Shown: one piece after another, positions 13,981 to 33,000 of the stretch | How positions within the stretch are numbered: the first letter of the stretch is position 1 | How the letters are laid out: each line of letters opens with the position of its first letter | Origin: Patescibacteria group bacterium | GTDB taxonomy: Bacteria; Patescibacteriota; JAHJAL01 | Assembly (NCBI GenBank): GCA_049322675.1 | Contig: JBMORM010000010.1 | Location: forward strand, 19,028 to 83,027 | Length of the DNA: 64,000 nucleotides | Direction: 5' to 3' | Translations under genes and position numbers: made by a program | The notes under the pieces: generated by a model | What the model saw: only the letters and a program-made list of their open reading frames with translations | What the model was told of the DNA's origin: nothing | Databases searched by the model: none

Positions 13981-16140
13981 ATGGAGAAAAAAGTTTGGAG
14001 TGGGGTCGGATTGGTGTTATTTACATTGGCGATTTTCGGACAAACCAGTCTGGTACAAGCGATGAGTGATTACGATTATTCGATTTCTCAAAAGTCGGAC
14101 AATCCAATCGTAAAACAAGGGGAAGAAGTAATCTTGTGGGTGAAAATTTTGAATACTGGAAATGCCACTTGGTATGGCGACCGGGCCAATGAACATGATA
14201 CTTGTCATACAGATGAAAACGGGGAAATTTATTGCATGGGAGCTTTGGTGGAGCCTTTGCGATTGGGAACTGTTCGTCCGACGGATAGAAACAGCGGGTT
14301 TTTTACGCAAGACAATTGGATAGCATCCAATCGAGTCCACAAAGCCGATGAAGAAGAAATAATGCCGGGCGGAGTGGCTTCTTTCGGTTTTTACGCGAGT
14401 GTCCCTTATGATATGAACCCGGGAATTTACCGAGAATGTTTTGCGCCGGTAGTTGAAAATACAACCTGGATGGGAGACAAGGGTATTTGCTGGGATATCA
14501 ATGTCGTGGATAATCCGGAAGAAAAATCCTACAAAGCTGATGCGATCAATGATTATGACACTAGTTATATTGAACTGGCGCCGGGAGAACAAAAGAAAAT
14601 TACCTTGAAGGCCAAAAATACCGGCACGGAAACTTGGACAAGAAGTGGACAATATCCGATTCATCTGGCAACAGATAAACCGAAAGATCGTGTAAGCGAT
14701 TTTTATGATAAAAACTGGTTAAGCGAAAATCGTTTGACGATGCTAAATGAAGAAAATATCAAACCGGGAGGGTCGGGCAGTTTTTCATTTACTTTGACCG
14801 CCCCCGTCAAAGCGGAGATCGGTGATGAATATTATGAATATTACCGTTTGGTTGCCGAGGGCAAACAGTGGTTGGGTTCTTCGGATTCTTTGGAAGCCTT
14901 TGGTTGTGGCGGCAATAAGTTAGGTGAGAAAATGGCTTATACTCAGTGTGCCGGATATTACGACGGTTTTATCGTAGTCGTAAAGATAGTTGACGACGAA
15001 AGCAACATTGAGACAAATGTCGGAGAAGAATTTACAATAGAACTGGATTCCAATGGTACCACCGGTTACGCCTGGGATATAGTCGCTCAACCCGATAAAA
15101 ATATTATCGAACTTGTTGATTCCGGTTACAGAGACGAGTGCCCAGTTGATCTAACCGGTTGCGGTAATCCGCAATTTTGGACTTTTAAAGCTTCAAAAGA
15201 GGGGAAAACCCAGTTTGAAATGCAATATCGACGCAGTTGGGAAACGGATATCGAGCCTTTGCAGACCAAGAAATATAATGTTTTGGTATTGAGCAAACTT
15301 GAAGCTCAGGAGAATCTGAAAGAAATGGCGGAAAATTTGACGGCGGTAAAATCATTGGAATACAATGGTGAATTCAAGATGTCCAGTGAGGATGAAAAAA
15401 TTGATATGGACATTGATTTTAGCGGCGGAACTGACGAAAATAATATCAATAATCCGTTGGGATATTTTTTGGTTGGTTTCAATTTGGTTAATGCGGATGA
15501 AGATTTGAAATATGCCGGTGACTTGGAATGGCGAACTATCGATAACATCGATTATCTCAAATTGGATTATCAAAGCGAGGTGGAAAATCCTGAGATTAAA
15601 AAGTATCTGGATGTGATCAATGATCAATGGATCAAAATGGACAAGGAGACGGATGTCGAGGATTTTGATCTGGGAATGTTTAATGAAGAATTGGGCAATT
15701 GGCAGGACAAGTTGACCGACGAACAACAGGAAAAAATCAAAGAACTCAATCAAAAATATCAAATCATGAAGGTTTCCGAGGTGTTGGCCGATACGACGGT
15801 AGATGGAGTAGCAGTTTATCATTATCGTTACATGATCGACGTAGCGGAGATGGAACAAATGATCAACGAACTGGATCAGGTGTTGTCGCCGGAGTTGAAC
15901 CCGTATCGCAATCCGTCGATGGACGAGGTAAAAAATCTAACGGGCGAGATTTGGATTGGAAAGACTGATTTACTGCCCTACAAAATGACGGTGGAAATGG
16001 ATGAAATGATGGAAGCCAGTGATGCAACGATTGATTTTACAATGTATTTCAAAAATTTCAACCAACCACTGACCATTGAGACTCCCGCGACAGCAAAAAC
16101 TATTGATGAGATTGCCGAGGATATGGAGAAGATTGAGTAA
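13981..16140 (+). CDS. Secreted protein: two Ig-like (NBR1-FW-type) domains, a chagasin-family (I42) peptidase-inhibitor-like domain, and an acidic C-terminal region
   Basis: 719 aa. Signal peptide MEKKVWSGVGLVLFTLAIFGQTSLVQA. The N-terminal domain is homologous to 3764..6079 (..ILWVKILNTGNATWYGD..RPTDRNSGFFTQDNWIASNR..). The central IVVVKIVDDESNIETNVGEEFTIELDSNGTTGYAWDIV matches the chagasin/I42 (G-x-x-F-x-I-x-L-x-x-N-x-T-T-G-Y-x-W) signature. Confidence 0.75.
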   Translation: MEKKVWSGVGLVLFTLAIFGQTSLVQAMSDYDYSISQKSDNPIVKQGEEVILWVKILNTGNATWYGDRANEHDTCHTDENGEIYCMGALVEPLRLGTVRPTDRNSGFFTQDNWIASNRVHKADEEEIMPGGVASFGFYASVPYDMNPGIYRECFAPVVENTTWMGDKGICWDINVVDNPEEKSYKADAINDYDTSYIELAPGEQKKITLKAKNTGTETWTRSGQYPIHLATDKPKDRVSDFYDKNWLSENRLTMLNEENIKPGGSGSFSFTLTAPVKAEIGDEYYEYYRLVAEGKQWLGSSDSLEAFGCGGNKLGEKMAYTQCAGYYDGFIVVVKIVDDESNIETNVGEEFTIELDSNGTTGYAWDIVAQPDKNIIELVDSGYRDECPVDLTGCGNPQFWTFKASKEGKTQFEMQYRRSWETDIEPLQTKKYNVLVLSKLEAQENLKEMAENLTAVKSLEYNGEFKMSSEDEKIDMDIDFSGGTDENNINNPLGYFLVGFNLVNADEDLKYAGDLEWRTIDNIDYLKLDYQSEVENPEIKKYLDVINDQWIKMDKETDVEDFDLGMFNEELGNWQDKLTDEQQEKIKELNQKYQIMKVSEVLADTTVDGVAVYHYRYMIDVAEMEQMINELDQVLSPELNPYRNPSMDEVKNLTGEIWIGKTDLLPYKMTVEMDEMMEASDATIDFTMYFKNFNQPLTIETPATAKTIDEIAEDMEKIE

Positions 16141-17957: not shown

Positions 17958-18875
17958 ATGGAAAAAGTAATAATTATCGGTTCGGGGCCGGCGGCGATGA
18001 CGGCGGCGATTTATACCGGGAGAGCGGAGTTGAAGCCGTTGGTGATTGCCGGGGTGCAGTGGGGCGGATTGCTGATGTGGACAACCTGTGTAGAAAATTA
18101 CCCGGGTTTTCCGGATGGCGTGATGGGACCGGAACTCATGATGCGTTGCAAACAACAAGCGGAAAAATTTGGTGCCAGGTTTATTTTGGACAATGTGGCG
18201 GAAGTTGATTTCAAGAGTTCACCTTTCAAAGTAAAAGTGGGAGACAAGTGGGAAGAAGCGGAATCGATCATTATTGGTGCAGGAACGAAACCGAGAACTT
18301 TGCGTTTACCTAGAGAAAAAGAGTTTATCGGACGCGGTTTGTCAGTCTGCGCCACTTGTGATGGCGCGTTGTTCAAAGAAAAAGATGTGATCGTGGTTGG
18401 TGGCGGGGATAGTGCGATGGAAGAGGCTAATTTTTTAAGTAAGTTTGCTAAAAGCGTCACTGTTTTAGTGCGTAGCGACAAGGTGAGAGCAAGTAAGATA
18501 ATGCTGGAACGTTCAGAAGCAAATCAAAAAATAAAGATTATGTACAATACCGAAGTGATTGAATATCTGGGGGACAAGGCTTTGGCGGGAGTTAAAATAA
18601 TTAATAACAAAACTCAAGAACAATCCGAATTGCCGGCAAATGGATTGTTCTTGGCGATCGGTCACGTGCCAACAACGGAAATTTTTCAGGGGCAATTGCC
18701 GATGGACGAATTGGGATACTTGAAGAAAGAAAAAAATAATATGTCCTCTATCGAAGGGGTATTTGTTTGCGGAGACGTGGAAGACGGGCGATACAGACAG
18801 GCGATCGTGGCAGCCGGCGATGGCTGCAAAGCGGCGTTGGATACGATTAGGTGGCTGGAGGGGAAGGAAAAATAA
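17958..18875 (+). CDS. trxB: Thioredoxin-disulfide reductase
   Basis: 305 aa. FAD-binding GSGPAAMTAAIY, redox-active CATC (GRGLSVCATCDG), NADPH-binding VIVVGGGDSAMEEANFL, and C-terminal VFVCGDV..YRQAIVAAGDGC. Confidence 0.95.
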   Translation: MEKVIIIGSGPAAMTAAIYTGRAELKPLVIAGVQWGGLLMWTTCVENYPGFPDGVMGPELMMRCKQQAEKFGARFILDNVAEVDFKSSPFKVKVGDKWEEAESIIIGAGTKPRTLRLPREKEFIGRGLSVCATCDGALFKEKDVIVVGGGDSAMEEANFLSKFAKSVTVLVRSDKVRASKIMLERSEANQKIKIMYNTEVIEYLGDKALAGVKIINNKTQEQSELPANGLFLAIGHVPTTEIFQGQLPMDELGYLKKEKNNMSSIEGVFVCGDVEDGRYRQAIVAAGDGCKAALDTIRWLEGKEK

Positions 18876-19167: not shown

Positions 19168-19806
19168 GTGACTAGCTCCGTGAGTGGGGAAGTTGAAAAT
19201 TATTTTGACTGTAATATTATTGATCAATCTTCGTTAATATCTATGGATGAAAGTAATCAAATAGATTTACAAATGGAGCAGGAATTGGTGGAAAGAGCCA
19301 AGACGGACGATTTGGCTTTTGAGCAATTGTACAATCTGTATTTTCCGAAAATATATGGGTTTGTTTACAAGCGGGTTGGCCAAAAACAGATTTGCGAAGA
19401 TATAGTATCGGAAGTGTTTATGAAAGTTTTTACCAACCTCAAGGATTATCGGGATCAAGGGATGTCTTTTGGTTGTTGGGTTTACAAGATTGCGACCAAC
19501 AAATTGATTGATTACTATCGAAGCGGTAAAAAGCAAATGGTGGTGGGAGTGGAAATGATGGAAAATATCGGGTCGAAAGAAAACATTGGGGAGCAAACAG
19601 CCAACAAGATGGAAGTGGAGGAGATTCAAACAGTTATTTCCACTCTTGCCGAAAATTATCAACAGATTATAAATTTAAAATTTTTTGCGGAACTAAGCAA
19701 TCAGGAGATCGCGAAGATTTTGAAAATTTCGGAGAATAATGCTGGGGTAATTATTTTTAGGGCGTTGAAGAAGTTTAGGGAGGAATACGGGAAAAAGAAT
19801 TTATAA
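19168..19806 (+). CDS. ECF-type RNA polymerase sigma-70 family factor
   Basis: Region 2 (VERAKTDDLAFEQLYNLYFPKIYGFVYKRVG..EDIVSEVFMKVFTNLKDY..FGCWVYKIATNKLIDYYR) and region 4 (INLKFFAELSNQEIAKILKISENNAGVIIFRALKKFRE). The true start may be the internal Met at 19243 or 19273. Confidence 0.85.
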   Translation: MTSSVSGEVENYFDCNIIDQSSLISMDESNQIDLQMEQELVERAKTDDLAFEQLYNLYFPKIYGFVYKRVGQKQICEDIVSEVFMKVFTNLKDYRDQGMSFGCWVYKIATNKLIDYYRSGKKQMVVGVEMMENIGSKENIGEQTANKMEVEEIQTVISTLAENYQQIINLKFFAELSNQEIAKILKISENNAGVIIFRALKKFREEYGKKNL

Positions 19807-20003: not shown

Positions 20004-23000
20004 ATGGAAAATGATTTCAATAAAAAACTAGAAGAGGCGATCAAAACAGGCGTGTTTGATCAAATCGAGTGTAATAATGACGAAGAAAGATCGTTACTTA
20101 AAGCAGGAAAGAAAATTTATCAGGCTAAATTTAAAGCAATTCCTGCTGATAACGGTTTTAAAAATGTTCTTTTTGACAGATTAAAACAGGCGCGGCAGGG
20201 AGAAGGAAAAACAATGGAAAAAGAAATGGTCAAAGGGCAACAATTTGATTGGTGGGCGTTTTTGACTCAAAGAAAATGGGCGGTGGGAATTGCCTCGTTT
20301 TTGCTGGTGGCAATAGTCGCTTCATTGTTGTATTGGCTGCCAGGGACCAAGCAGACGACCGGTGGGATTTTGATCCCACGGGCCCAGGCGGATGAAATGT
20401 TTACTTTCAAACCGACAAAAGCGGACAGTATCGGGATTGACGAAGAAAGTGATTTTTCTCTGGTAAGTCAGATTGATTTAAAATTGGCAGATGTTGAAAA
20501 GTATTTGGAAGTAGATCCGGCATTTAAATATAGTGTTAAGGAAATTTCCGCACGGGAATTTTTGATTGATAGCCAGGAGAAACTAAATCCAAAACAGATT
20601 TACAAATTTAAATTGAAAACAACGACTCAGGACGCGAACGTTTTGGAAAGCCGCGATTTTGATTGGGCATATCAGATCAAGGACGAATTTAGAATTACCG
20701 GAACCATACCTGGCGATAAAAGTGATGCTGTGCCACTGGATAGCGGAATTGAAATAAATTTTAATCAGGAGAATTTTGTTAATTTCGATCAGTCAATCGA
20801 AATCAGTCCTGCCATACCGGGTCGATTGGAAAAGCATTATAAAACTTTGGTATTTGTGCCGACGGAAAACTTGCAGGCTTCAACTTTGTACCAAGTAAAA
20901 GTCAGTAAGTCGATTGTTTTGGATGGAAGTGATAAAAAATTGGCCGAGGATTATACTTTTGCTTTTGAAACTTCCACCGATACTACAAAAGATGGATATT
21001 TTGAAATAGAGGATGAGGTTGGGCAATATGGTCCGGAGGAAGTGCCGGGGGTCAAGATGTGGGTCAATATTTTTGACTCAGACGAGAATAAAGATGTGGC
21101 GACCAAGTTATTTCGTTTGGAATCGCAGGATCAGTTTTTGGATTTGTTGAACAAACGAAACGAAATTCCGTTGTGGGCAAGTCAAGCGCGTAATCGCGCG
21201 CAGGTGGATGTGACCGGTTTGAATAAAGTTGGTGAATATAATTTGCCGATTCATCGTTTGGATTACAATCAGTATATTTTGTTTCCGGATAAATTGCCTA
21301 TCGGATATTATTTGGCGCAATTTACAGTCAAAGGACAAACTAGACAATCTTTTATTCAAATCAGTAATTTGACCGCATATACTTCGATCAGTAAAACAAA
21401 TAGTTTGGTGAGAATATATAGTTTGGCGGGACAGAAACCAGCAGCGGGTACGGTTTTAACTATGTATCAAGGCGAACTGGAAGAACAAACAAATGATGAG
21501 GGAATTGCCTTTTTTGCGACACCGGAAGTTTTGTTGACGATATCGGAAAAAAGTCGATTTTTGCTGGCGACCGGAGCGGACGGAGAATTGGTAATTCCGA
21601 TAAAGAACTACGAGCGTGGCCAGATTTTTGATACGGATACGTCGGAGAATGATAATTTTTGGCGATATGTTTTTCTCGATCGCAGCGTTTATCACCCGAC
21701 AGACACAATCAAATTTTGGGGAATGATAAAACCTCGTGATGCAAATACCGCTAAGGTCAGTAAAGTATCGGTCGGAGTAGAGATGTTTTATCCGCGAACA
21801 GATGTTTTCGGAACAGTAGAAGTTGATTTGAATGAAGATGGTATATTTAGCGGAGAATATCAATTGAAGAATATGCCGACCAGTTCTTTGAATTTTACAA
21901 TCAGGGGTGAAAATGATGAATTGTTGCTCACTTCGTATTTGAATATCGAAGATTATATCAAGCCGGCTTATAGGATTGAATTGTTGCCGGATAAAAAAGC
22001 AGTAGTGCAAGGAGAGACGGTAAATGTTCGGGTAAAGGCGAAATACTTTGACGGAACACCGGTCGCCAATTTGGATCTGGATTATCAAGGTTTGACCATC
22101 AAAACCGATCAAGTGGGAGAAACAAATTTTACAGTTGAGACCACTGATAAAGCCAATTGTTCCGATTATAACTGCTGGTCAAGTTCGAGCACGATTGAAG
22201 TAAAACCATTGCGGGCGGAAGAAGGAGAGATTGTCGGAGTGACATCTGTGGACGTTTTTCCGGCCAAAGAAATGGTGAAGATATCGGGTAAGTATGATGA
22301 GGAAAATGGACAGATTGCTTGGAAAATAAATGTTAATGAAGTCGGTTTTGAGCGATTGAATCTGGGTGAAAAAAATTATTACGATGATTATATCGGACAG
22401 AAATTACCTAATCATGAAATACAAGTTCAGATTTATGAAAACTGGTGGGAGAAGACCGAAACAGGAGAAGAGGAATATGATTTTATCAACAAAGTGACCA
22501 GAAAAAAATATAGTTATTCGAGAGAAGAAAAATTGATCAAAGAATTTGGGGAAAAAACAGACGAAAATGGAGAGTATGATTATGTATTAAATAATTTGAC
22601 GGCCGGTAAAGATTACACTATGCGGGCAAGCATAGTGGATCCGGACGGAAGACAATATTTCAATCGAGCCACGATTTATTTTGATGGAGGGAACTATCAA
22701 AGCATTTTTATTGATTCCTATGGTTTTAGAAAAGACGAAAATGAAGATGTCAAAACATTTAAATTGGGCGAGAAAGTCAATTTGACCATGGTAAAAAATA
22801 GTTTTGACTCTATACCGGACAAAACGGGAAGTTATATTTTTTATCAGGCACAAAACGGAATCACTGAATATCAGGTTGGTGATAGTTCAAAATATGAATT
22901 TACTTTTGAAGAAAAGCATATTCCCAATGTCAATGTGATCGGAGTTTATTTTGACGGGGCACGTTTTTATCACACCAAAAAAGTATGGAATGATATGACT

Positions 23001-25571
23001 ATATTCTTCGATTATGAGCAGCGCCGATTGCAGCTTGAGGTAAAAGCAGAAAAGGAACAATACGAGCCGGGTGATGAGGCGACGGTAAAAATTGAGGTAA
23101 AGGACGAAAATGGCCAGCCAACTCAAGCACATGGCAATATCTCTTTGGTGGATGAGGCGTATTTTGATTTGTTCAATCGGGAACCTGTGGATACCCTGGC
23201 TTTGTTGTACTCAAAAGTGGAAGACGGTATATTCTTTAGCGAGACTTCCAATAAACCGTTGACGAAAATGATTTTCCAAGGTGGATGTTTTACCGCCGGG
23301 ACAAAAATATTGATGGCCGATGGAACCACCAAGGCGATCGAAGATATTCGTTTGGGCGATTTGGTATCAACTTTTGTTAATGAACATTCCAATATCAAGA
23401 TGACGGACAAGGTAACAAAAATTTTCAACGAAATTTCCGGTGGATATTTGGTGATCAACGATCGGCTCAATGTCACCTCCCACCATCGACTTTTGGTTAA
23501 TAATAAATGGATGACAGCGGGCGAGATAAAAGTAGGCGATTATTTGCGGGATCAAGACGGTGAGTTGGTCAAAGTGGAAAAAATCGAAACAAAAAGTGGC
23601 CGATTCACGGTGTACAACTTTACCACGGAGGCAACTCATACATATATCGCTGACGGAATATATGTCCACAACAGCAAAGGTGGAGGGAGGGAAAGTTTTG
23701 AAGATACCGCCTTTTTCTCTTCATGGAAAACTGATCGAAACGGGAAAGCCACCGTCAAGTTTACTTTGCCGGATAATATCACCAGTTGGAGAATTACCAC
23801 TCAGGGAATTTCGTCCACATTGAGAGCCGGTAGTGGCACCAACAAATTGGTAGTGACTCAACCAATATTTTTGGACATGTCTTTGAATACAAGTTATGTC
23901 AATACAGACAAGCCGATTGTTCCTATCCGAGTCTATGGAGAAAATATGACGGCGGACGACGAGGTGGAAATTACTGTCGAATCAAAAACTTTGAAAACAA
24001 AAGAAAAGTTGCACGGCAAAGCATTTACGACAATCGAATGGTTGATGCCGGAATTGAAGGTGGGGGAACAGGAAATTATCGTGACAGCAAAAGCCAAAGG
24101 ACTGACCGATAGTGTCAAGCGTTCATTTGTGGTAAAAGATACACGATTGACCAAACAGATGAGTCAGAGCGTGAAATTGACAGCGGATTTGAAACCGAAA
24201 CAACAGTCAGAAAATGGCCGGGTGGAGTGGAAGTTTTTTAACGGCGATATCGGATGGGCTTACGAAAATTTGCTCAATGCCAGTTGGCAGGATGGAGAGA
24301 GAATTGATCAAAAGCTGGCGCCGGTAGTGGCAGAAAAATATTTGCAAGAAAGTTTTGGTCTCGGATCGGGCGCGCAAAAAGTTGACGAAATAGCCAAATA
24401 TCAACGAGAAGATGGCGGATGGTCATTGCTTCCCTACTCTGACAGCGATTTGAAATTGTCGGCACTGACGGCAGGAATCGTCCCGGCTGAATGGCAAAAT
24501 GTTACCGAAGCCAAAAAATATTTTAACAATATTTTGGATAATAAAAAAAGTAATACCACTGAGATAGCCATGGCTTTGTATGGTTTAACAAATCTGGATG
24601 AACCGGTTTTGAATCAAATCAATCAGATTTTGAAATGGCCGGAACTGAAGCCAATTGATCAAATCTATTTGGGATTGGCGGCGGAAAAATCGGGCGCCAA
24701 AGAATTGGGAAGAAATATATTGCATGATGTTTTGCAAAAAAATGCGAAAACTAGCGGTGACAATATGTTTATTCCACAATCAGACCAATCGGCTCAAGAC
24801 GAGATCACCAGTCTGGCGGCAATCTTGGCCAATGCCACCGAAATGGACGAAAAGGAAAGCCTGATGAATTATCTGCGAGAGGGTCGGGATGGTGACAATT
24901 TGTATCTTTGGGAAAAAATGATCATCACCAAGAATATTTTGGATAGAAACAATGACCTAGATAGCGAATTTACTTATACTGTGGCAGGAAAAAACAAAAA
25001 AATAAGCCTAAAAAATAACGAGGAATTTGCTCTGAGTTTGACCAATGAGGAAAATAGCAGTTTGGCCTTTTCTCAAATCAAAGGGAAAATAACAGCAGTA
25101 GCGACATGGGAAGAGAAAGCAATAGATACAACAACCGACAAAAATCTGAAAATCAGCCGGGAATACTGGGTCAACGACCAGAAAGTAGATGTCGTCAGAG
25201 AAAATGATTTGGTTGAAGTGCGCATATTTCCTCAAATCAGTGAAGAAGCTCCATCTGACGCTTATCAGATTACCGATCTTTTACCTAGTGGATTAAAACC
25301 AATTACCAGAACATATACGCCATATTGGGGGAACAATGGAGGAAATTGGAAATGCAATGTGTACTTCCCGTCGGATATTAGCGGACAAAAGTTGAGTTTT
25401 ATCGTTTATAAAAACTTAATGCACTCCGGCTGTGAGGGTGGATATATCAGTTATTTTGCCCGGGTAAGCAACAAGGGCGATTTTACCCGCGAATCGGTAA
25501 CGATCAATCAAGTTGACGAGCCAACGTTCCGTTTGACCAGCCAGGAAGACAAGAGATTGGTGATTGAATAA
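20004..25571 (+). CDS. Membrane-anchored alpha-2-macroglobulin (A2M)-family protein with an inserted Hint/intein-like domain; short N-terminal cytoplasmic segment + single TM (anti-sigma-like placement)
   Basis: 1855 aa. The TM helix is WAVGIASFLLVAIVASLLYWL, around aa 92-112. Big/SbsA-Ig-like N-terminal domains are present. The bacterial A2M macroglobulin-domain motif is RESFEDTAFFSSWKTDRNGKATVKFTLPDNITSWRITTQG (compare YfhM/ECAM ..F.ETAFF.P...TD..G...V.F.LPDNLT.WR). The thioester-domain region is FGLGSGAQKV...KYQREDGGWSLLPY, with the CxEQ site degenerated to GSGAQ. A C-terminal receptor-binding-like domain follows. Confidence 0.8.
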   Translation: MENDFNKKLEEAIKTGVFDQIECNNDEERSLLKAGKKIYQAKFKAIPADNGFKNVLFDRLKQARQGEGKTMEKEMVKGQQFDWWAFLTQRKWAVGIASFLLVAIVASLLYWLPGTKQTTGGILIPRAQADEMFTFKPTKADSIGIDEESDFSLVSQIDLKLADVEKYLEVDPAFKYSVKEISAREFLIDSQEKLNPKQIYKFKLKTTTQDANVLESRDFDWAYQIKDEFRITGTIPGDKSDAVPLDSGIEINFNQENFVNFDQSIEISPAIPGRLEKHYKTLVFVPTENLQASTLYQVKVSKSIVLDGSDKKLAEDYTFAFETSTDTTKDGYFEIEDEVGQYGPEEVPGVKMWVNIFDSDENKDVATKLFRLESQDQFLDLLNKRNEIPLWASQARNRAQVDVTGLNKVGEYNLPIHRLDYNQYILFPDKLPIGYYLAQFTVKGQTRQSFIQISNLTAYTSISKTNSLVRIYSLAGQKPAAGTVLTMYQGELEEQTNDEGIAFFATPEVLLTISEKSRFLLATGADGELVIPIKNYERGQIFDTDTSENDNFWRYVFLDRSVYHPTDTIKFWGMIKPRDANTAKVSKVSVGVEMFYPRTDVFGTVEVDLNEDGIFSGEYQLKNMPTSSLNFTIRGENDELLLTSYLNIEDYIKPAYRIELLPDKKAVVQGETVNVRVKAKYFDGTPVANLDLDYQGLTIKTDQVGETNFTVETTDKANCSDYNCWSSSSTIEVKPLRAEEGEIVGVTSVDVFPAKEMVKISGKYDEENGQIAWKINVNEVGFERLNLGEKNYYDDYIGQKLPNHEIQVQIYENWWEKTETGEEEYDFINKVTRKKYSYSREEKLIKEFGEKTDENGEYDYVLNNLTAGKDYTMRASIVDPDGRQYFNRATIYFDGGNYQSIFIDSYGFRKDENEDVKTFKLGEKVNLTMVKNSFDSIPDKTGSYIFYQAQNGITEYQVGDSSKYEFTFEEKHIPNVNVIGVYFDGARFYHTKKVWNDMTIFFDYEQRRLQLEVKAEKEQYEPGDEATVKIEVKDENGQPTQAHGNISLVDEAYFDLFNREPVDTLALLYSKVEDGIFFSETSNKPLTKMIFQGGCFTAGTKILMADGTTKAIEDIRLGDLVSTFVNEHSNIKMTDKVTKIFNEISGGYLVINDRLNVTSHHRLLVNNKWMTAGEIKVGDYLRDQDGELVKVEKIETKSGRFTVYNFTTEATHTYIADGIYVHNSKGGGRESFEDTAFFSSWKTDRNGKATVKFTLPDNITSWRITTQGISSTLRAGSGTNKLVVTQPIFLDMSLNTSYVNTDKPIVPIRVYGENMTADDEVEITVESKTLKTKEKLHGKAFTTIEWLMPELKVGEQEIIVTAKAKGLTDSVKRSFVVKDTRLTKQMSQSVKLTADLKPKQQSENGRVEWKFFNGDIGWAYENLLNASWQDGERIDQKLAPVVAEKYLQESFGLGSGAQKVDEIAKYQREDGGWSLLPYSDSDLKLSALTAGIVPAEWQNVTEAKKYFNNILDNKKSNTTEIAMALYGLTNLDEPVLNQINQILKWPELKPIDQIYLGLAAEKSGAKELGRNILHDVLQKNAKTSGDNMFIPQSDQSAQDEITSLAAILANATEMDEKESLMNYLREGRDGDNLYLWEKMIITKNILDRNNDLDSEFTYTVAGKNKKISLKNNEEFALSLTNEENSSLAFSQIKGKITAVATWEEKAIDTTTDKNLKISREYWVNDQKVDVVRENDLVEVRIFPQISEEAPSDAYQITDLLPSGLKPITRTYTPYWGNNGGNWKCNVYFPSDISGQKLSFIVYKNLMHSGCEGGYISYFARVSNKGDFTRESVTINQVDEPTFRLTSQEDKRLVIE
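23286..23672 (+). other. Hint-domain insertion (mini-intein or bacterial intein-like domain, 129 aa, no endonuclease) within the A2M-like ORF
   Basis: The segment starts with Cys (CFTAGTKILMADGTTKAIEDIRLGDLV...), ends with ...THTYIADGIYVHN, and is followed by Ser (+1). The flanks IFQGG | SKGGGRESFEDTAFF are continuous host sequence leading into the conserved A2M motif. Confidence 0.75.
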
Positions 25572-25705: not shown

Positions 25706-28700
25706 ATGCCGGGAGAAAAACACCAGCAAATAAATCCAAAAAACGAAAGAATTGAAAAATATCTGAAACGATCAGTTGATCGAGGTGCATATCTGGACAA
25801 AAAGCAGGTGGTAGAGGCAGCAACAGATGTTTTCCAAAGGGAAAAGAAATTACAGGAAGATATTCTAAAATCTTATGAAGCGAAAGAGATTTCAGAATTT
25901 GATTATATCGTTTTAGCAAAAAGAGTATTTGAAGAATGTGATTCGGAACGAGGTTGGGAATTATTAAAAAATCTAAAAATTGAGAATATTGATCCAGTTA
26001 GTCTTTTTGGACATAAGGGAGTTGAGAAGCATCAATTGCTTTTCAATGAAATTGAAAGGCAAATTAAAGGTAAAATCTCGAAACTCAATTCGTTTTCAGA
26101 TAAAAAAGCAATTTTATTGAGAATAGAATATTTGAAAGCACTGGATAAGATTCAAAATAGATGCAGGGAAAATAAAAAAGAAGAATACCAATCCCTTGAT
26201 CAAATACCCTTTTCCACCAAGAAAGCACAAGAATTATATATCGAAATAAATAATCATTACTCTGAGTATCTTCGGTTAAAAAAACTGAAAGCTCTGGATT
26301 TTAAAGATTCGCGGTCGGCAGGAGTAACTTTGGCAGAAAGTACTTTGCAGGAATTTTTTACACCAGAGACTGAGCCACAAAAAGTAAATCATTCGGTGGG
26401 AGTAAATATAAATTCTGGTAAGAAAAGGGCTAAACAGTTGAGACTATTAAGAAGGATTCTTGATGAGACTTTAAACGATCCGGAGCAAAACTGGCGGGAG
26501 AAGCAACAGGAGTTTGCTCGGGAAGTGGCGATCGATGGGTTACAGAAGGAGATAAAAAGATCTTTGGAGAAAACCAATCCGGAAGCGAGATTGGAGTTTG
26601 ATGGGGAGAAAGGGGAATTTGTTGTGTATTCCAAAAAATCTACCGATGGCACTGACGCGTCGATTGCCGGCGAAAAAATAGAATTGATTCCAGAAAAAAT
26701 CACAGGATATATATTTTATAAGCGTAATTCCTCCAAGATTATTAGCGTTGGTAATAGTTTTGTGATTAATGAGGATGGCAAGCAAATTTATGGATTTGTT
26801 GACACAAAGCAACACGAAGAAAGGAATAATTATTATGGTTTTGGTTTTTTTCACAATGATGATTTGTGGATTCGAACAAATTCAGATCCAGAAATAGAAT
26901 TAGATGATAATAATATAATATATTTTGACAAAAATTACGCCAGAAGAGATAAAATTCTTTTTGGAAACAATCATCCTGATGGTGAAAAATATATATTTCT
27001 TGTACAGCATAATGGAGAACTAAAGAAAATTTTTGGGATTGATGTAGCTTGCTGCGACGAACCTTCATTTTTTGATAATGAGTTTGTTTTTACGGCAAAA
27101 ACTAAGGATGAAAAATGGCACATTGTAAAAGAAGATGGATCGAAAATAACGATTCCGAATAGTTTGATACCGATAAGCAAAATATACAAGCCAATCGACA
27201 AAATGGTGTTTGTCGCTCATGAACTGGACGAAAATGGTCAATCGACCGGAAGCGTTATTGTGGATACAGACGGAAACAAGATATCACAAAAACACGATTA
27301 TATAGATTTCAAAGGTGAATATATTTTTTCCGAGTATATTTATATCAAGAAAGGTGATCCCCAATTTAATCCGGACGGACCGGAGGAAATATGGGGAACG
27401 ACTAGCGGCAGATTAGCCGCGTCGGGTTCGTCAATTAAAAAAATCTGGGGGGTGCAGGACCGTTTGTATTGGGTCAATGGACAGAATGAATTTTTTACCA
27501 AATACACGGATATAAAAACCCACAAAGATGTAGTGGAGAAGCTTGGTCAGTATGACAGCAGCAAAATTGAGTTTATTACAAGAATGACAAAAGACGGAGC
27601 CAATGACCGGATAATATATCCAGATAATATTGGTTCGATTAAACCGGGGGCGGTAGGGTTGGATTTTATTGATTCAGAAGGCAAACGCCATATACTGGGC
27701 GGCGATCGACATTTTTGGAATGTTTTAAAAGTGGAGAGTATTCAAGAAAAATGTCTGGTAGTTCAAGAACACAAAGGAAAAATAACGGTGTATGTCGAAG
27801 GTATCGGTGATGTGGGCGGAGAATGGGACAAGATTTATTTTTTGAAAGAATATGAAAATCAACTGTTGATTTGCGGGCGGCGAGGAGACGAGATCGTTGA
27901 AGTGGCGGTTGATTTGGATAAAAAAGCGAAATTGACGCCAGAGGAAGCGACCAAATTGAAATTGCTCAATCTGTTAAAAAAGTATGATTGGTTGGCATAT
28001 GAGGAACGATCGGTGAGAAAAAATAAGTCAAACACCTATTCCAAATCAGGTAAAGAAAAATTGGCCGAAAAATCAGATAAACTGAAAAACGACCGGGAAG
28101 AATTGAAGAAAAAAATATTGGATTATTTTGAAAATGATTCAGTCCTGCGGGAAATTTGGCAGAAGTGGGATCCGGAAAAGGATTATCGATCACATTCGAA
28201 AAATTTTGCCGACAAAATAACCAAAATGGTACGAACCAGCCCGGAATTGTTTTTGGATTATTTCCGGGCAAAGAAAGATCGAAATGTGGAAAAATTGGCC
28301 AGAGAGATGGTGGATTTTGTTTTTAAAGAATATGAAGAAAAAATAGAAAACGAACCGGCCAAGAAAGATCATTGGGTAAAAGGTTTAGCCAAAAATATAA
28401 TCTCCACTTTGTTGGGAGAAAAAACCAGAGAACAAATTGGTAGCTGGTGGCAAAAAAATTCAAAAAAAAGTTTGAACAAGCCAAATTTGGCTGATTTTTT
28501 TCAAGACAGTGACAACATAAAAATATTGGGCGGAGATCCTGAGGAAAAGGGACCGGGTTTGGAAGTGATGAAATTTGGTCGGGAATACAAAGGTTTTATT
28601 TATGATCAAATATTGGGAAAATGCGATAACGGGAAAAATTGGAGTAAGATTGATTTTCCGGCAACATTTCTTCTCACCGAACCAACAAAAGAAACCACCG

Positions 28701-30055
28701 TCACAATCAATGTTGATAAAAAATGGGATAAAATAATTTTGCCAAAACCGGTTCAGTCAGCAATAATTTCGTCGAGAATAAAAGGAATAACCAGCAAGGG
28801 AAAAGAAATATCTTTGGAAAAAAGTGGAACGACCAATAAGTTTGGTCAAAGAACGGTTATTTTTAACCCCAAGGACAACATTGCCCAACTGAGATATTCC
28901 TGGAAAGAAAATCAGTTTGAGACAAAAATGCTGGAAATTGAAGAATATGATAGTTTTAGAAATAAGTTTATTTGGGAAACTAAAATATCGGATTTGACGT
29001 CGGATATCGCCCCAAAAATGGACGAAAATTTTGGGGAGATTTTGGAAAAAATAGAATTATTATCCCCAAAGGGAAAGGTGGAGGCGATTGAAGAATTTGT
29101 GAAAAAAATTGGCTACTATGACATGAAAAACGCGGAAACACTGGAAGACAAAAATGATATAACCTTGGATGAAAGGTTGATACTGATGAAATCCAGGATG
29201 GATTCATTGAAAAAAAATCCAAAGATGGCCGGCAAATTGGAAAAAAAGTTTGTTGCCGGTGTTTGTGCAGATTATGCTTTGCTGACAGTTGCATTATTGC
29301 GAAAGGCCGGCTTCATGGCCGGATATGCCAGTGGTTTTGACGTGAATGGGAAAGTAGCTACTTCCAAGGAAGCTCATGCTAAAGCATTTGTCCTTTGGCC
29401 GGATAAAGATGGTAACGCCACTTTGCAACTGGTGGACGGCACGCCCGGCGGAATTGATGAAAAACAACAAAATGAAATAGACGGATTTTTGAATATCGAA
29501 ACAATCGAAAAAAAAGAAAAAATAACTGAGCAAAAGAAGGAGAGAAAGATAAAGACAGTTAAAGAAAGAGTGCAAGAGTTGATGTCTTTGCGAGTTGAAG
29601 ATATCGCCAAGATTGATAATGGAGAATTGGAAAAAATATTAAATGATTATCTGGCTCTTGTCACTAAAAAGTCTCATTTCAAAATTGTGGAGCGGGTACT
29701 AAATACCTACTGGTACACCGGTTCCGAAAGAAAGGATATGTCAAATCAAGATATCAAAAGAAAAATTCAATTTTTGTTGTTGGAGGAATTTGGTAAAGAG
29801 TACAATAGTATTTTGGAAAAAGACAAAAAGGTGGCGAGCGGCAAGGAAATGTTTGAGATGGTGGAAACTTTTATCGATAAATTCAAGAAACAAGATAAAG
29901 ATTTGGCTACGAGTCAGGCTTTGGAAAATATAAGAATCATAATTGAAACGGTGCCAAAAGGACTTCTTTCCCGACCGGAAAGAGTGGCGATGGAGATTAT
30001 AGTCAAATATTTGGAAGCAAAGAAGATGAGTAGTCAGTTGGGTCAAAATAAATAA
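25706..30055 (+). CDS. Giant (1449 aa) K/E-rich protein with a C-terminal transglutaminase-like cysteine-protease-fold core
   Basis: KKFVAGVCADYALLTVALLRKAGFMAGYASGFDVNGKVATSKEAHAKAFVLWPDKDGNATLQLVDGTPGG matches the transglutaminase-like core (G-x-C-x-(D/E)-(Y/F)-A...LLRA.GIPAR...HAW.EV..W...DPT, a Cys/His/Asp triad). The rest is coiled-coil and low-complexity sequence, with WG-containing repeats in the centre. Confidence 0.75.
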   Translation: MPGEKHQQINPKNERIEKYLKRSVDRGAYLDKKQVVEAATDVFQREKKLQEDILKSYEAKEISEFDYIVLAKRVFEECDSERGWELLKNLKIENIDPVSLFGHKGVEKHQLLFNEIERQIKGKISKLNSFSDKKAILLRIEYLKALDKIQNRCRENKKEEYQSLDQIPFSTKKAQELYIEINNHYSEYLRLKKLKALDFKDSRSAGVTLAESTLQEFFTPETEPQKVNHSVGVNINSGKKRAKQLRLLRRILDETLNDPEQNWREKQQEFAREVAIDGLQKEIKRSLEKTNPEARLEFDGEKGEFVVYSKKSTDGTDASIAGEKIELIPEKITGYIFYKRNSSKIISVGNSFVINEDGKQIYGFVDTKQHEERNNYYGFGFFHNDDLWIRTNSDPEIELDDNNIIYFDKNYARRDKILFGNNHPDGEKYIFLVQHNGELKKIFGIDVACCDEPSFFDNEFVFTAKTKDEKWHIVKEDGSKITIPNSLIPISKIYKPIDKMVFVAHELDENGQSTGSVIVDTDGNKISQKHDYIDFKGEYIFSEYIYIKKGDPQFNPDGPEEIWGTTSGRLAASGSSIKKIWGVQDRLYWVNGQNEFFTKYTDIKTHKDVVEKLGQYDSSKIEFITRMTKDGANDRIIYPDNIGSIKPGAVGLDFIDSEGKRHILGGDRHFWNVLKVESIQEKCLVVQEHKGKITVYVEGIGDVGGEWDKIYFLKEYENQLLICGRRGDEIVEVAVDLDKKAKLTPEEATKLKLLNLLKKYDWLAYEERSVRKNKSNTYSKSGKEKLAEKSDKLKNDREELKKKILDYFENDSVLREIWQKWDPEKDYRSHSKNFADKITKMVRTSPELFLDYFRAKKDRNVEKLAREMVDFVFKEYEEKIENEPAKKDHWVKGLAKNIISTLLGEKTREQIGSWWQKNSKKSLNKPNLADFFQDSDNIKILGGDPEEKGPGLEVMKFGREYKGFIYDQILGKCDNGKNWSKIDFPATFLLTEPTKETTVTINVDKKWDKIILPKPVQSAIISSRIKGITSKGKEISLEKSGTTNKFGQRTVIFNPKDNIAQLRYSWKENQFETKMLEIEEYDSFRNKFIWETKISDLTSDIAPKMDENFGEILEKIELLSPKGKVEAIEEFVKKIGYYDMKNAETLEDKNDITLDERLILMKSRMDSLKKNPKMAGKLEKKFVAGVCADYALLTVALLRKAGFMAGYASGFDVNGKVATSKEAHAKAFVLWPDKDGNATLQLVDGTPGGIDEKQQNEIDGFLNIETIEKKEKITEQKKERKIKTVKERVQELMSLRVEDIAKIDNGELEKILNDYLALVTKKSHFKIVERVLNTYWYTGSERKDMSNQDIKRKIQFLLLEEFGKEYNSILEKDKKVASGKEMFEMVETFIDKFKKQDKDLATSQALENIRIIIETVPKGLLSRPERVAMEIIVKYLEAKKMSSQLGQNK

Positions 30056-30059
30056 AAAA

Positions 30060-33000
30060 ATGATTGAAAAAATTGATAATGTTTTTGAGAACAATGAAGA
30101 TAATCTGGGAAAAAACTCCTTTGCAGGCCCAACACAAGATGTCCAAAAACAGAAACCCAATGAAGATTTAGTTTGGATGCGAGGGGTAGAAAGTGGATTG
30201 ATCATGATGGATCAAGATTTGAAAGAGATTCAGGAAGGAGAATATTTTGAGAAAAAAAGACAGATCGATCAAAAAGAAAAAGAGATTTTTTGGCAGAGGT
30301 TGGCATCTTTGAATAATCAAGATATCAATGAAGAAAATGTCGGTGATATCTTGGCGATAGCAAAAATTGGTGAGTGTCTGCGCGGCGAACTGATAAATGA
30401 TATTGAGGAAAAATCGGCGAATGAAATGGAATTAAAGAATCAGATTGCTGCTCTTGAAGAAAAAAGAGAAAAAATAAGAAAAAACCATTGGACCAGATTA
30501 ATCCCGATTTCTGACATCGCTTATATTTTTCGACCAAAAGAGAAATTGAGGGAGGTAAATCAAGAGATCAGAAAACAAAAAGATGATTTGTATATTTTAT
30601 CTAGTAGAAAACAAAAGGATAAAGAGTCCTTGGAAAAGATAAATGAGTTTTATCAGAAAAATACACCAGAGAAATTGTTTGCCGCTAAAGCCAAGAAAGA
30701 AATTGGCAAGACAATCGAGGGAGCTTTAAAGTCAATCGAGCAGAAATATGGGGGAAAAATTGAGTCCGACAATCAAATTCTTTGGGATTTGACCAGGCAA
30801 AATTTCAAGAAGGAGATTCTTGCCAACGTGGCTAATTCTTTGTTGGATAAAAAATGGGAGGATGATTATCGTAAAATTTTGGAGGAGGCAATAAAAGAAA
30901 AGGTTAAAAAAATCGATCAGGAAAAAATAGTTTATAACAAAAAGAATTATAGCTTCGATCCTCAAAAGTGGCTATCTCAAGACAGTGATATATTTTTATC
31001 TGATTATGACGATTACGGAGTGAGAAAGGTGGCGGATTGGGATTGGAAAAATTATAGGGGGGTGTTTGACAACGCCCCGATGATCAGAGAAATAATTGAC
31101 GGATTGGCAATAAAAATCACTCGCAAATTAATGGAAGATGAATTTGTTTTTCATCCCCAGCAAACCAAAGAAATTTTGAACAGGATTATTGAACCGGAAA
31201 AGATTTTGCCCTATTTGTTTTTGGGAATCAAGCACAATTGGCTGGAAGGAAACGGATACAAAACGAAAACACATCTTGATTTTTTGACGGAAATAAAAGC
31301 CGATTTGAAAAATAAGAGTAATTTTTATCATGCAATCAAACAAGAGACTTCAGTTTTGAAAGTTGCCGATCGTAAAATAGCATACTCTGATGGAGGGGGC
31401 GATTTGAAGGTGAAATGGAATCAGGGAGATGAGTTTACCAATCAAGATGCCGAGAGATTAAAGTTGTTTTTTGATCCATCGTCTATGTTTAATCACTTGA
31501 GAGGCAAGATTAACGGCAAAAATGATAACGATCCCGACCTTACATTTTTAGTTGCCGACAAACGATGGGTGCAAAGACAGGAAAAGTATTCGCGATTACT
31601 TTTGCAAAAAAACATTACTGCTGATTTGGAAAAAAATATCAAAACTGAAAAAGATTTGGCCGGATTTTATCATGATGAGATTAGTTCTTTGGATAGGTTT
31701 GCCAATAGAATATTTAGTTTGGCAGAGAATAAAGACGAGGGGGATCGGATATTTCAGGATTTTAAAGACGATTTATCGAAAAGGATGAGTTTCGGCGAAG
31801 CTACTTTGAAAGGTTGGAATACGATTTCCGAGAATACAAATCTTGCGAAAGAACAAATTTGGCAGATTTTTTTTGATGGTCTAAAAACTAAAAAAAGTTT
31901 TCCGTTTGATCCGCAAATAGTCGGACGCGAATTGGATATTTTTTCCAAGATGGCGGCGGCAGGATATTGTCAGGAACGGATTTTGTTGGATAAATTTGAG
32001 GAGCAATTGTTGGAGGTGGCTAATTGGGATAATGTTTTAGGTATTTTTAAGATGGTAAAAATAATGCCCGGGCTGGAGAAAGAAACGGTGCAATCATTTT
32101 TTCACAAAGTCTATGATGGCATCAATCACCAAAGACCGTTTGTTAGCTTTGAGGATTGGGTAAAACAATTGGACGAGATGATCAATATGACCGCAATAGA
32201 TAAAGACGGATTGCCCAACTGGGAAATAGATGTAAAAGAATTTGAGGAAAGTAAAGATATTACCCAATATCAACAGATGATATATAAAAAATTTATCTCC
32301 AGTCTTGTATGCAAAATTGATCAAACCCAATCAAACGCGAGGGAAAATGCTCAAATGCTTTCGGAAAAAAGCGGAGTTTCATTGGAAAAAATATACGCCT
32401 GGTTGTTGTCTTTGGAAAACGATGTGAGATTGGAAAACAATCAAATTTTTCAGAATTTGTTGGCTGAAGAAAATGAACAATTTTTAATCAAATTTATTGG
32501 CGAAATATCCGGATGGAAAGAAGACAAATCAGAAAACAGATTAACCGACGAAGAGATAAATGAGAAGATCAAAATATTTTTGACGAAATGCCCCAAAAAA
32601 AATAAAAAATCCATCCTATCGGAGATGGTGAATCTGAGTCGAATGAAAAACCGGGAGAAAAATATCGGACAGACAATGATAGCCTGGATAATAAATAGTG
32701 CTGGTAGAGAAAAGAATTTTAATCCCAATAAATTGTCAACTATTGTCTCCATGTTATCAGTTTGCAAAAGATTACACTGGAATACAGAATTTTTACCACT
32801 CGGACCCGAATACGAAAAATTGTTGAATGAAAGAAAAATGGCAGTCATGACATTGGATTTAAAGGAATTTAATTGGCAGAACATGTCGGATAATATAATT
32901 GAGCAAATGCGAGAATTTTTGGGTCGGGAGAAAGATGAAGTCAGAAATAGTTTGACACAAGAGTTTTTGTACTGTCCCCTGGTGAACAAGAAGATTTATC

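Follow-up and report, generated by a model that had tools for sequence, protein, structure and literature searches.

A gene on the forward strand of a 64,000-nucleotide stretch of the genome of a Patescibacteria group bacterium (contig JBMORM010000010.1, positions 19,028 to 83,027; the whole stretch is referred to here as the window) encodes a membrane-anchored protein of the alpha-2-macroglobulin (A2M) family into which a Hint domain of 129 residues is inserted. An initial annotation, made from the sequence alone, had drawn attention to positions 23286-23672 as a Hint insertion of the mini-intein or bacterial intein-like (BIL) kind. The gene and its features, all on the + strand, are as follows:

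20004..25571, +, gene of the A2M-like, Hint-bearing protein, 1855 residues (open reading frame list and translation)
20004..20276, +, residues 1-91, N-terminal extension with three predicted helices, a putative cytoplasmic anti-sigma segment
20277..20339, +, residues 92-112, WAVGIASFLLVAIVASLLYWL, single transmembrane anchor (hydrophobic stretch in the sequence; AlphaFold2 helix 83-110)
22746..23171, +, residues 915-1056, A2M bait-region domain, MG6/BRD (Pfam A2M_BRD, 43.7 bits)
23172..23285, +, residues 1057-1094, bait-like linker, disordered in the AlphaFold2 model and poorly conserved, closed by Gly-Gly at positions -2 and -1 of the N-extein
23286..23672, +, residues 1095-1223, Hint domain of type-A BIL-like or PT-HINT kind, 129 residues (Pfam, NCBIfam, AlphaFold2, Foldseek)
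23286..23324, +, block A, CFTAGTKILMADG, with Cys1095 (predicted nucleophile in the N-S acyl shift) first and Phe second
23475..23486, +, block B, T1158-S-H-H1161 (TxxH)
23610..23651, +, block F, VYNFTTEATHTYIA, with V1203-Y-N...H1212-T-Y and an Asn where class-1 inteins usually have Asp
23661..23672, +, block G, Y-V-H1222-N1223, predicted site of Asn cyclisation and C-terminal cleavage
23673..23690, +, C-terminal flank S1224-K1225-G-G-G-R1229, holding the +1 residue, a conserved Lys, a Gly linker and the Arg that opens MG7
23706..23972, +, residues 1235-1323, A2M (MG7) domain with LPDNITSWR (Pfam A2M, 46.6 bits)
24294..24311, +, degenerate thioester site, G1431-E-R-I-D-Q instead of GCxEQ (alignment to relatives that retain CxEQ)

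The translation of the Hint segment opens with CFTAGTKILMADG, includes NVTSHHRLL and closes with THTYIADGIYVHN / VYNFTTEATHTYIADGIYVHN, and the residues that come next are SKGGGRESFEDTAFF, with LPDNITSWR further on. Taken alone, the 129 residues match Pfam PT-HINT (PF07591) with 48.6 bits (gathering score 27.7, E = 1.3e-12), which is the best of all Hint models; Intein_splicing (40.1 against 35.8), Hom_end_hint (38.3 against 32.1), Hint_2 and Vint also score above gathering, and the NCBIfam model TIGR01443 (intein_Cterm) gives 25.9 bits at a cut-off of 15.6. PF07591 is precomputed on 11/11 of the close homologues that carry the domain, one orthologue being named 'polymorphic toxin-type HINT domain-containing protein' by NCBI. 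In an AlphaFold2 model of residues 1030-1300 the Hint has a predicted local distance difference test (pLDDT) score of 82-97, falling below 50 over the 37 residues N-terminal of it (model residues 27-63) and the 10 residues that follow. A Foldseek search with the modelled domain returned BILs, mini-inteins and the Hedgehog Hog domain at probability 1.00 and TM-scores of 0.7-0.84, in the order BIL2 of Tetrahymena (E = 1e-10, TM-score 0.77-0.80), the Clostridium thermocellum BIL 2lwy (TM-score 0.84), the DnaB, gp41-1 and RecA mini-inteins, and Hedgehog. Sequence searches of the PDB gave the same ranking: 2lwy was found with E = 4e-8 from the single sequence and 8e-17 from the profile, and Tetrahymena BIL2 (6tmm/6y75) with 1e-17 from the profile, both BILs standing above the RecA and DnaB inteins; 8w20, an uncharacterised chain of 1368 residues titled 'Intein C-terminal splicing domain-containing protein', was also among the top matches. 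Block F, with its VYNF...HTY, is common to the window Hint and 2lwy, the Mtu RecA intein having YDL. By the ranking of sequence and fold matches and by the block-F Asn, the window Hint is closer to the characterised BILs than to inteins.

The domain has what defines the HINT superfamily, namely the Hint fold, the block A Cys and the block B TxxH, and the presence of a Hint at this position, as the initial annotation had it, is borne out by the Pfam and NCBIfam matches, the block A/B/F/G motifs and the modelled fold. Its remark that the insert is only about 129 residues long and has no homing endonuclease is likewise correct: neither an endonuclease domain nor a remnant of one was found in the Hint, and the domain is 127-130 residues long in 142/142 relatives. 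The preference it expressed for the BIL class over a canonical intein agrees with the closest solved relatives being BIL domains. It had also suggested that the domain might splice, cleave or ligate the ectodomain. Its description of the boundaries as canonical needs amending in part, since the Cys at the start, the YVHN at the end and the Ser that follows are all there, but the Ser is a peculiarity of the lineage (Ser or Thr in 10/142 relatives) and cannot be called canonical. The GC content of the Hint segment is 0.41-0.43, inside the range of the host gene, and no second Hint was found in the 64,000-nucleotide window. Two reverse-strand open reading frames lying over the Hint segment (23123-23476 and 23367-23669) were set aside as chance frames within a conserved + strand gene.

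The host protein has Pfam matches to A2M, A2M_BRD, MG2, Big_5 and PT-HINT, with Big_5 and MG2 lying N-terminal of A2M_BRD, and profiles of its family match YfhM (E = 4e-19), SaA2M, human A2M, C5, TEP1 and CD109 in the PDB. It belongs to the A2M superfamily on the strength of its macroglobulin (MG) domains, its bait-region domain and its A2M (MG7) domain. The CxEQ thioester motif occurs nowhere in the 1855 residues; at the corresponding place the GERIDQ of the window protein aligns with GYPYGCVEQTMS in four relatives that retain CxEQ. The motif has been lost in about 121/125 full-length members of the family, which have G-[DE]-R-x-D-Q at the same position. The four that keep it form a clade of their own (P0157, P0181, P0184 and P0201), with the canonical GYPYGC[VT]EQTMS some 215 residues C-terminal of the Hint; each of these thus has both a Hint and an intact GCxEQ, and the relatives that have no Hint are also without CxEQ.

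Comparison with relatives identifies the Hint as an insertion and places it at the end of the bait region. Among 16 close homologues it sits at the same place in 11 and is absent from 5 (P0003, P0012, P0013, P0015 and P0016), whose sequences align uninterrupted through the Gly-rich linker, for example as ...EKQLGG|GGGMRDDF... and AERGG|GGGDR. A profile of the flanks from which the Hint had been taken out (A2) gives one continuous alignment with E. coli YfhM across the insertion point. Aligned to C5, the same profile breaks off on the N-terminal side at residue 629 and resumes on the C-terminal side at residue 785, and the interval between them (630-784) covers, in UniProt numbering, the end of the beta-chain, the RPRR processing site, C5a as the ANA domain, and the N-terminus of the alpha' chain. 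Against human A2M the alignment of the C-terminal flank begins at residue 729, immediately after the bait region, which is 690-728 in the same numbering. The insertion point is accordingly the C-terminal end of the bait region, topologically where C3 and C5 carry the ANA domain and the chain-processing site. The D/E-K pair that follows the Hint is absent from the Hint-less homologues.

These alignments also settle several points of the initial annotation about the host. That the segment interrupts A2M sequence and is no normal part of it stands, as five homologues align straight across, and so does the continuity of the exteins in alignment with YfhM, a comparison the annotation had proposed. 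The membrane-anchored A2M-family host is confirmed by the transmembrane segment at 92-112 and the flanking A2M_BRD and A2M/MG7 domains. The placement N-terminal of the LPDNITSWR motif holds and can be refined to the C-terminal end of the bait region, in a host to which the absence of CxEQ must be added. The insertion, viewed there as atypical, is real; it is not an isolated event, being found throughout the family and under purifying selection in many lineages of Patescibacteria.

An exhaustive search of 1.84 billion (1.84e9) representative proteins, at the 50%-identity level, with a profile made of flank, Hint and flank (A3) gave 975 matches at E <= 1e-30. Among the best 150 were 148 new proteins, and 130 of these match the whole A3 profile in one stretch, with protein lengths of about 1750-1900 residues. 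A word-indexed search with the A2 profile at E <= 1e-30 returned nothing, and one with a full-length alignment (A1) returned no new members. A scan of GTDB with one genome per species gave at least 576 relatives, from the best 80 of which (L008-L087) the locus statistics are taken. The Hint is covered in all 80 of these loci and sits at the same site in at least 79 species genomes, from lineages that include Collierbacteria, Uhrbacteria, Magasanikbacteria, Falkowbacteria, Peregrinibacteria/Peribacteria, Gracilibacteria, Saccharibacteria, Kerfeldbacteria, Moranbacteria, Portnoybacteria and others. The nearest is a metagenome-assembled genome (L008) titled 'Patescibacteria group bacterium', 96% identical to the window over the query region. 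The arrangement is kept in at least about 80 species, and probably in hundreds, of the ultra-small bacteria of the candidate phyla radiation (CPR, or Patescibacteria). The same CPR-type gene also occurs in assembled genomes titled 'uncultured Pseudomonadales', 'Gammaproteobacteria' and 'Nanoarchaeia archaeon' (L009, L015, L019, L020, L030, L040 and others), which are probably mislabelled or contaminated bins.

Conservation was counted over 142 representative family sequences and cross-checked on 79 genome loci. The residues expected to act in catalysis hardly vary: Cys1 and the Phe after it are present in 142/142, the block B Thr in 141/142 and His in 142/142, the block F Asn in 141/142, His1212 in 126/142 and Thr1213 in 142/142, and the C-terminal His-Asn in 142/142, as is Arg1229, at the opening of MG7; the positions around the catalytic residues vary. 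On the N-terminal side Gly-Gly occupies -2 and -1 in 123/142 representatives and 72/79 genome loci, and on the C-terminal side a Lys lies no more than three residues after His-Asn in 141/142 and 79/79. The +1 position is another matter. It is D in 65 of the 142, E in 27, Q in 17, A in 16, S in 8, N in 3, and I, T and K in 2 each, and never Cys, so that D, E, Q or A account for 125/142 (88%), Ser or Thr for 10/142 (7%), and 132/142 have none of S, T or C; among the genome loci a Ser is found in 2/79. Ser1224 of the window and the residue of its 93%-identical relative are among the ten exceptions, and on these counts the Ser of the window is a lineage quirk. The family thus shows the C-terminal His-Asn without a +1 nucleophile that characterises type-A BILs, the window copy being an exception. 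The Hint is present in 125/130 aligned members of the clade, a ratio that is biased because the 125 were picked with a Hint-containing profile; the Hint-less close homologues number five.

The closest relatives of these Hints outside A2M-like proteins are tandem-Hint proteins with two to five copies (P0056, P0191, P0192, P0196, P0182, P0186, P0058, P0055 and P0060), joined head to tail by HN-K-G(-G-G)-C. Several of them open with a type-IV-pilin N-terminal methylation motif, and others combine a signal peptide and a transmembrane segment with a Tim44-like domain, or contain PKD domains.

Sequence change has been slower in the Hint than in the protein around it. Pairs of family sequences share on average 45% identity in the Hint, 31% elsewhere in the ectodomain and 28% in the bait linker, and in comparison with the 93%-identical L008 orthologue dN/dS is 0.028 for the Hint, 0.057 for the N-terminal part of the host and 0.104 for the C-terminal part. 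Judged by these values, the Hint is under stronger purifying selection than its host. In the same comparison dN is lower in the Hint, and dS is 0.77 there and 0.34-0.46 in the rest of the gene; the high value could be noise over 129 codons or could come from local recombination. A neighbour-joining tree of the exteins, rooted on P0016, pairs the Hint-less P0003 with its sister group (P0002,(P0001,window)) at a depth of ten nodes within the Hint-bearing clade, in which the Hint-less P0013 and P0015 are also nested. On this topology the most parsimonious history has the Hint gained once, early on, and in rare cases lost again precisely. A recent horizontal acquisition was rejected in view of the host-like GC content, the conserved site and length, and the host phylogeny.

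Taken together, we consider it probable, at roughly 0.6, that the segment is an autoprocessing module of the type-A BIL (PT-HINT) class, fixed and vertically inherited in a Patescibacterial family of membrane-anchored, mostly thioester-less A2M-like proteins, where it would excise itself from the bait loop; the Hint looks like a working part of its host, and a genetic parasite would fit the conservation less well. Type-A BILs have a C-terminal His-Asn and no +1 nucleophile, and form an N-terminal thioester and cleave by Asn cyclisation; their products are mostly those of cleavage, although an attack by the freed amine on the thioester can also lead to ligation (PMC4031507, PMC7765530, PMC7664689). 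A single change of the +1 residue to a nucleophile turns a BIL into an efficient splicer (PMC7664689). The rarity of Ser and Thr at +1 across the orthologues strengthens the assignment to this class.

A pathway can be proposed whose chemical steps are extrapolated from conservation and from other Hint domains; what the analysis itself shows is the fold, the motifs, the site and how well they are conserved. The protein would be anchored through its N-terminal transmembrane helix and its ectodomain exported in an unfolded state, the Hint then folding outside the cell into the structure that is predicted with high confidence. Cys1095, assisted by Thr1158 and His1161 of block B, would convert the Gly1094-Cys1095 peptide bond into a thioester, and cyclisation of Asn1223 with the help of His1222 would cut the chain between Asn1223 and Ser1224, so that a Hint of 14 kDa leaves the bait loop. 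In the orthologues without a +1 nucleophile, which are the majority, hydrolysis of the thioester would give a two-chain protein held together by the shared MG6 domain, as in C3, C4 and C5; alternatively, attack by an amine, either the new alpha-amine or that of the neighbouring conserved Lys, would religate the chain. In the window protein the derived Ser1224 should also permit class-1 splicing, yielding ...FQGG-SKGGGR...

The coexistence of Asp, Glu, Gln, Ala and Ser at +1 within one orthologous family suggests that removal of the Hint, and not continuity of the chain, is the selected outcome. Such selection would be plausible, given that both sides of the bait loop contribute sequence to MG6 and that C3, C4 and C5 are functional as proteins of two or three chains. 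The selected function is thus most likely to be maturation or unmasking of the bait loop, with the restoration of a host interrupted by a parasite being less likely. Several observations weigh against assignment to an autoprocessing type-A BIL of this kind. Each chemical step draws on conservation and on the behaviour of other Hint domains rather than on biochemistry, and the Ser+1 protein of the window, taken singly, is indistinguishable from a class-1 mini-intein. Precise loss of the Hint in at least three lineages (P0003, P0013 and P0015) means that an A2M-like protein can be functional without it. The proteins in which BILs were defined are hypervariable and not conserved, whereas the present hosts form a conserved, orthologous family, albeit one of exported surface proteins in which the bait loop is locally variable. 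Conserved catalytic residues would also be seen in a selfish intein on whose removal the host depends. A neighbour-joining tree of 176 Hint domains is unresolved, with tandem-Hint proteins interspersed and the largest pure A2M clade holding 40/142 sequences, and therefore a single acquisition, although likely, is not proven from the Hint tree; the correlation between pairwise identities of Hints and exteins is only moderate (r = 0.35).

That the domain is instead a canonical selfish class-1 mini-intein, spliced cleanly by way of Ser1224 so as to leave a normal A2M-like protein, of no benefit to its host and persisting since loss is rare, appears improbable. The window sequence itself has everything such an element requires (Cys1, TxxH, His-Asn and Ser at +1), it scores above threshold with Intein_splicing and intein_Cterm, the RecA, DnaB and gp41-1 mini-inteins match it well in structure, and Hint-less alleles exist. 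Yet 93% of the orthologous insertions have no +1 nucleophile, the BIL and PT-HINT models and structures outscore those of inteins, the length is fixed at 127-130 residues with no endonuclease or remnant, and the domain has been retained across many CPR lineages while evolving more slowly than its host. A parasite at this position would be expected to vanish quickly, since its in-frame deletion from a Gly linker that is disordered and little conserved would do no harm. Class-1 inteins insert into highly conserved motifs of their hosts, whereas the site here is a Gly-rich linker with pLDDT below 50 and a mean identity of 28%, and of the other marks of that class the family has the His-Asn and lacks both a conserved +1 nucleophile and the signature of a mobile element. 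A different proposal keeps the thioester but gives it a use: the C-terminal Gly-Gly of the membrane-anchored chain would be activated as a thioester and captured by a lysine amine, either that of the Lys beside the junction, producing an intramolecular isopeptide 'splice', or that of a protease or other target, in place of the CxEQ warhead. We regard this as doubtful, although a number of features point towards it. Gly-Gly precedes Cys1 in 123/142, a Lys follows His-Asn in 141/142 and 79/79 and is missing in the Hint-less homologues, the same Hint subfamily occurs in tandem arrays linked by HN-K-G-G-G-C, and CxEQ has been lost in about 121/125 full-length members. Moreover Tetrahymena BIL2, the closest solved structure, follows a ubiquitin-like domain and splices to an isopeptide between a Lys epsilon-amine and the C-terminus, by which that domain is conjugated to substrates (PMC8616854). 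The four members with both Hint and GCxEQ indicate, however, that the Hint was not acquired in place of CxEQ, and the idea of a substitute for the lost thioester is weakened further by the Hint-less relatives that have no CxEQ either. A Hint thioester would also be unshielded from hydrolysis, unlike the buried thioester of A2M, and the Lys and the Gly-Gly may serve only the flexibility of the junction or Asn cyclisation. More speculatively, and by analogy, the Hint might be the chemical trigger of a trap that lacks the classical thioester: after export, the Gly-Gly thioester would be captured by the adjacent Lys, giving an isopeptide-bridged bait loop, or by a lysine of the target protease, giving covalent capture on the anchored chain; excision of the plug would act like removal of the ANA domain in the activation of C3; and in the half of the family that has a cytoplasmic extension and is paired with a sigma factor, processing, or its disturbance by proteases of the host, would be coupled to transcription, making the protein a self-processing, protease-sensing anti-sigma factor. 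We think this combination unlikely.

The remaining explanations concern what is done with the cut, or whether there is one. In the manner of pretoxin-HINT proteins the domain might do no more than release, as a diffusible effector, the last 630 or so residues with the MG7, TED-like and C-terminal domains, an idea encouraged by PT-HINT being the best Pfam model and by the NCBI name of one orthologue as a polymorphic toxin-type HINT protein. But the severed part has ordinary A2M architecture (A2M/MG7 and, with E = 4e-19, a YfhM-like TED and MG10) and no toxin domain; the neighbouring open reading frames scanned or listed for the window and related loci include no small immunity-like gene immediately downstream; and the residues at the N-terminal junction are conserved as much as those at the C-terminal one, all of which makes release of an effector very improbable. 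As MG6 is generally built from both sides of the bait loop in A2M and C3, the two chains should in any case stay associated after the cut. Least credible of all is a catalytically silent Hint that is only a folded plug or bait domain. Nothing specific speaks for it, although globular inserts are known at this position in C3, C4 and C5 (ANA), and it is at odds with the invariance (142/142) of all residues for thioester formation and Asn cyclisation amid variable surroundings. The reading as a self-excising type-A BIL module accommodates these observations best.

Comparison with known systems places the domain among established Hints and its setting apart from them. Type-A BILs, reportedly set out as a class by Amitai and colleagues in 2003, resemble the window family in several respects: the C. 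thermocellum BIL 2lwy, one of its two closest relatives in the PDB, belongs to a class of about 130-140 residues with Cys1, TxxH, VYNF...HTY and a C-terminal His-Asn, no family-wide +1 nucleophile, no endonuclease and hosts that are exported or at the surface. The window copy differs from them in its Ser at +1, and the family in its setting, since known BILs lie in hypervariable regions of non-conserved proteins, where the generation of variability is their supposed role, and the family occupies one fixed site in conserved orthologues. In BUBL1, a polyubiquitin-like locus of Tetrahymena thermophila, BIL2 has a ubiquitin-like domain as its N-extein, and its reaction leads to an isopeptide with the epsilon-amine of a Lys and to conjugation of that domain to substrates (PMC8616854). 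The GG-Cys1 and the Lys after His-Asn in the window family recall this chemistry, with the isopeptide being known there and the resemblance here being one of sequence; BIL2 is, moreover, eukaryotic, cytosolic, regulated by Zn and flanked by ubiquitin-like domains, whereas no ubiquitin-like fold flanks the window Hint. Class-1 mini-inteins (Mtu RecA, Ssp/Npu DnaB and gp41-1) share with it the fold and the four splicing blocks and, for the window copy, Ser at +1. The family differs from them in that its insertions lack a +1 nucleophile, lie in a disordered linker and have Asn instead of Asp in block F; their hosts are replication, repair or NTPase proteins rather than an exported homologue of a protease trap, and their occurrence is sporadic, whereas that of the window family is vertical and nearly universal in its clade. 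Pretoxin-HINT domains are likewise Hints of the autoproteolytic type in large exported proteins and are the best Pfam family, but the window Hint is internal to an A2M scaffold, with no toxin domain or immunity gene seen.

On the side of the host, the bait region of A2M and the ANA, furin or convertase site of C3, C4 and C5 occupy the same place, between the halves of MG6/BRD and MG7. C3 and C5 even carry there a small globular domain that is removed by proteolysis, after which the protein works as two chains. The difference is that in A2M and the complement proteins the cut comes from outside, from furin, a convertase or the attacking protease, whereas the window Hint is predicted to cut itself out. 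The bacterial proteins ECAM/YfhM and Salmonella SaA2M, which have the thioester, and MagD/YfaS, which has none, share MG architecture, membrane anchoring and the bait domain with the window protein, and MagD/YfaS is also like it in being without CxEQ. These bacterial A2Ms are anchored as lipoproteins, however, whereas the window family has a transmembrane anchor and a Hint in the bait loop and, in about half of its members, a cytoplasmic extension paired with a gene for an extracytoplasmic function (ECF) sigma factor. No PBP1c or mag-operon partner was seen among the neighbours scanned.

Giant A2M-like surface proteins have been noted in Patescibacteria and proposed as a defence against host proteases (PMC8080830, PMC9793634). 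Neither report mentions a Hint in these proteins, and a literature search combining intein or HINT domain with macroglobulin, and CPR with intein, found no earlier description. As a domain the Hint is of a known kind, the type-A BIL or PT-HINT. The novelty lies in where it is kept, at one fixed and conserved site in the bait loop, throughout an orthologous family of A2M-like proteins in many CPR lineages.

BILs have been known for some twenty years, mostly in hypervariable proteins that are hard to compare, and their role is still put in general terms as 'post-translational variability'. A BIL family at a conserved site offers a clean system for studying BIL function, with natural variants at +1 (Asp, Glu, Gln, Ala and Ser) and natural controls that have no Hint. 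It bears on the maturation or arming of thioester-less bacterial A2M-like proteins and on how CPR episymbionts live at their surface, where giant A2M-like proteins are proposed to give protection against host proteases (PMC8080830), and for protein engineering it provides a very compact Hint family of 127-130 residues from exported proteins.

Directly upstream of the A2M gene in the window lies a gene for a sigma factor:

19168..19806, +, ECF-type sigma factor gene (Sigma70_r2 60.6, Sigma70_r4_2 45.3 and Sigma70_ECF 28.4 bits)

Judged from its orthologues, the true start of this gene is probably the ATG near 19243. The sigma gene also adjoins the A2M gene in L001, L005, L006 and the Hint-less L007, and it lies directly upstream in 33/64 scorable genome loci, the Hint being found both with and without it. 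Its presence goes together with the form of the A2M-like protein: an N-terminal extension of at least 44 residues (44-115) is found in 33/33 loci that have the sigma gene, 29/29 loci with an early transmembrane segment have no sigma gene, and two loci have the extension without it (counts 33/0/2/29, Fisher p = 3e-16). AlphaFold2 predicts helices at 2-15, 26-40 and 52-74 of the extension in addition to the transmembrane helix (pTM 0.33). Within the N-terminal 90 or so residues no anti-sigma domain (zf-HC2 or ASD) was matched by Pfam to E = 10 or by Foldseek at E <= 0.001. The locus therefore has the gene order, the cytoplasmic segment and the single transmembrane segment of an ECF sigma/anti-sigma pair and lacks a recognisable anti-sigma domain. 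Gene context suggests an A2M-like ectodomain fused to a putative anti-sigma segment, and it is from context that this role is drawn because neither Pfam nor the fold search recognised such a domain. The frequency of the pairing may point to protease-sensing anti-sigma factors of a class not described before.

The wider neighbourhood of the window is conserved in L001, with an S8 subtilase, a chagasin-I42 protein, a thioredoxin reductase, the sigma factor, the A2M-like protein, a giant protein and a ClpB-like ATPase. The subtilase gene (about 1000 residues, 10822-13824, - strand) is divergent from that of a 719-residue protein with a chagasin-family I42 inhibitor domain (13981-16140, + strand); the pair is kept upstream of the A2M gene in the P0002 locus (L001, 1283-6565), and with the A2M-like protein it makes up a protease/anti-protease neighbourhood. 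The thioredoxin-reductase-like gene (Pyr_redox_2) lies upstream of the sigma gene in the three loci with the closest relationship, at 17958-18875 in the window, 8232-9146 in L001 and 3401-4315 in L007, adjoining it in the first two and separated from it by one open reading frame in L007. It may be linked to the Cys-dependent exported domain, or the proximity may be coincidence.

Downstream of the A2M gene the window has two giant open reading frames, 25706-30055 (1449 residues, with a transglutaminase core as the only match) and 30060-34661 (1533 residues, no Pfam match), and L001 has a different giant protein (Peptidase_M48 and ABC1) at the same position. In many loci a Memo-like gene (PF01875) of the same orientation lies 3' of the A2M-Hint gene, frequently with an overlap or a gap of a few bases; it follows the A2M gene in 51/80 loci (L008-L087) and also in L002, L004, L005 and L006, and is absent from the window. 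The sole Rfam match above gathering score in the window is a tRNA gene at 55704-55777 (70.2 bits).

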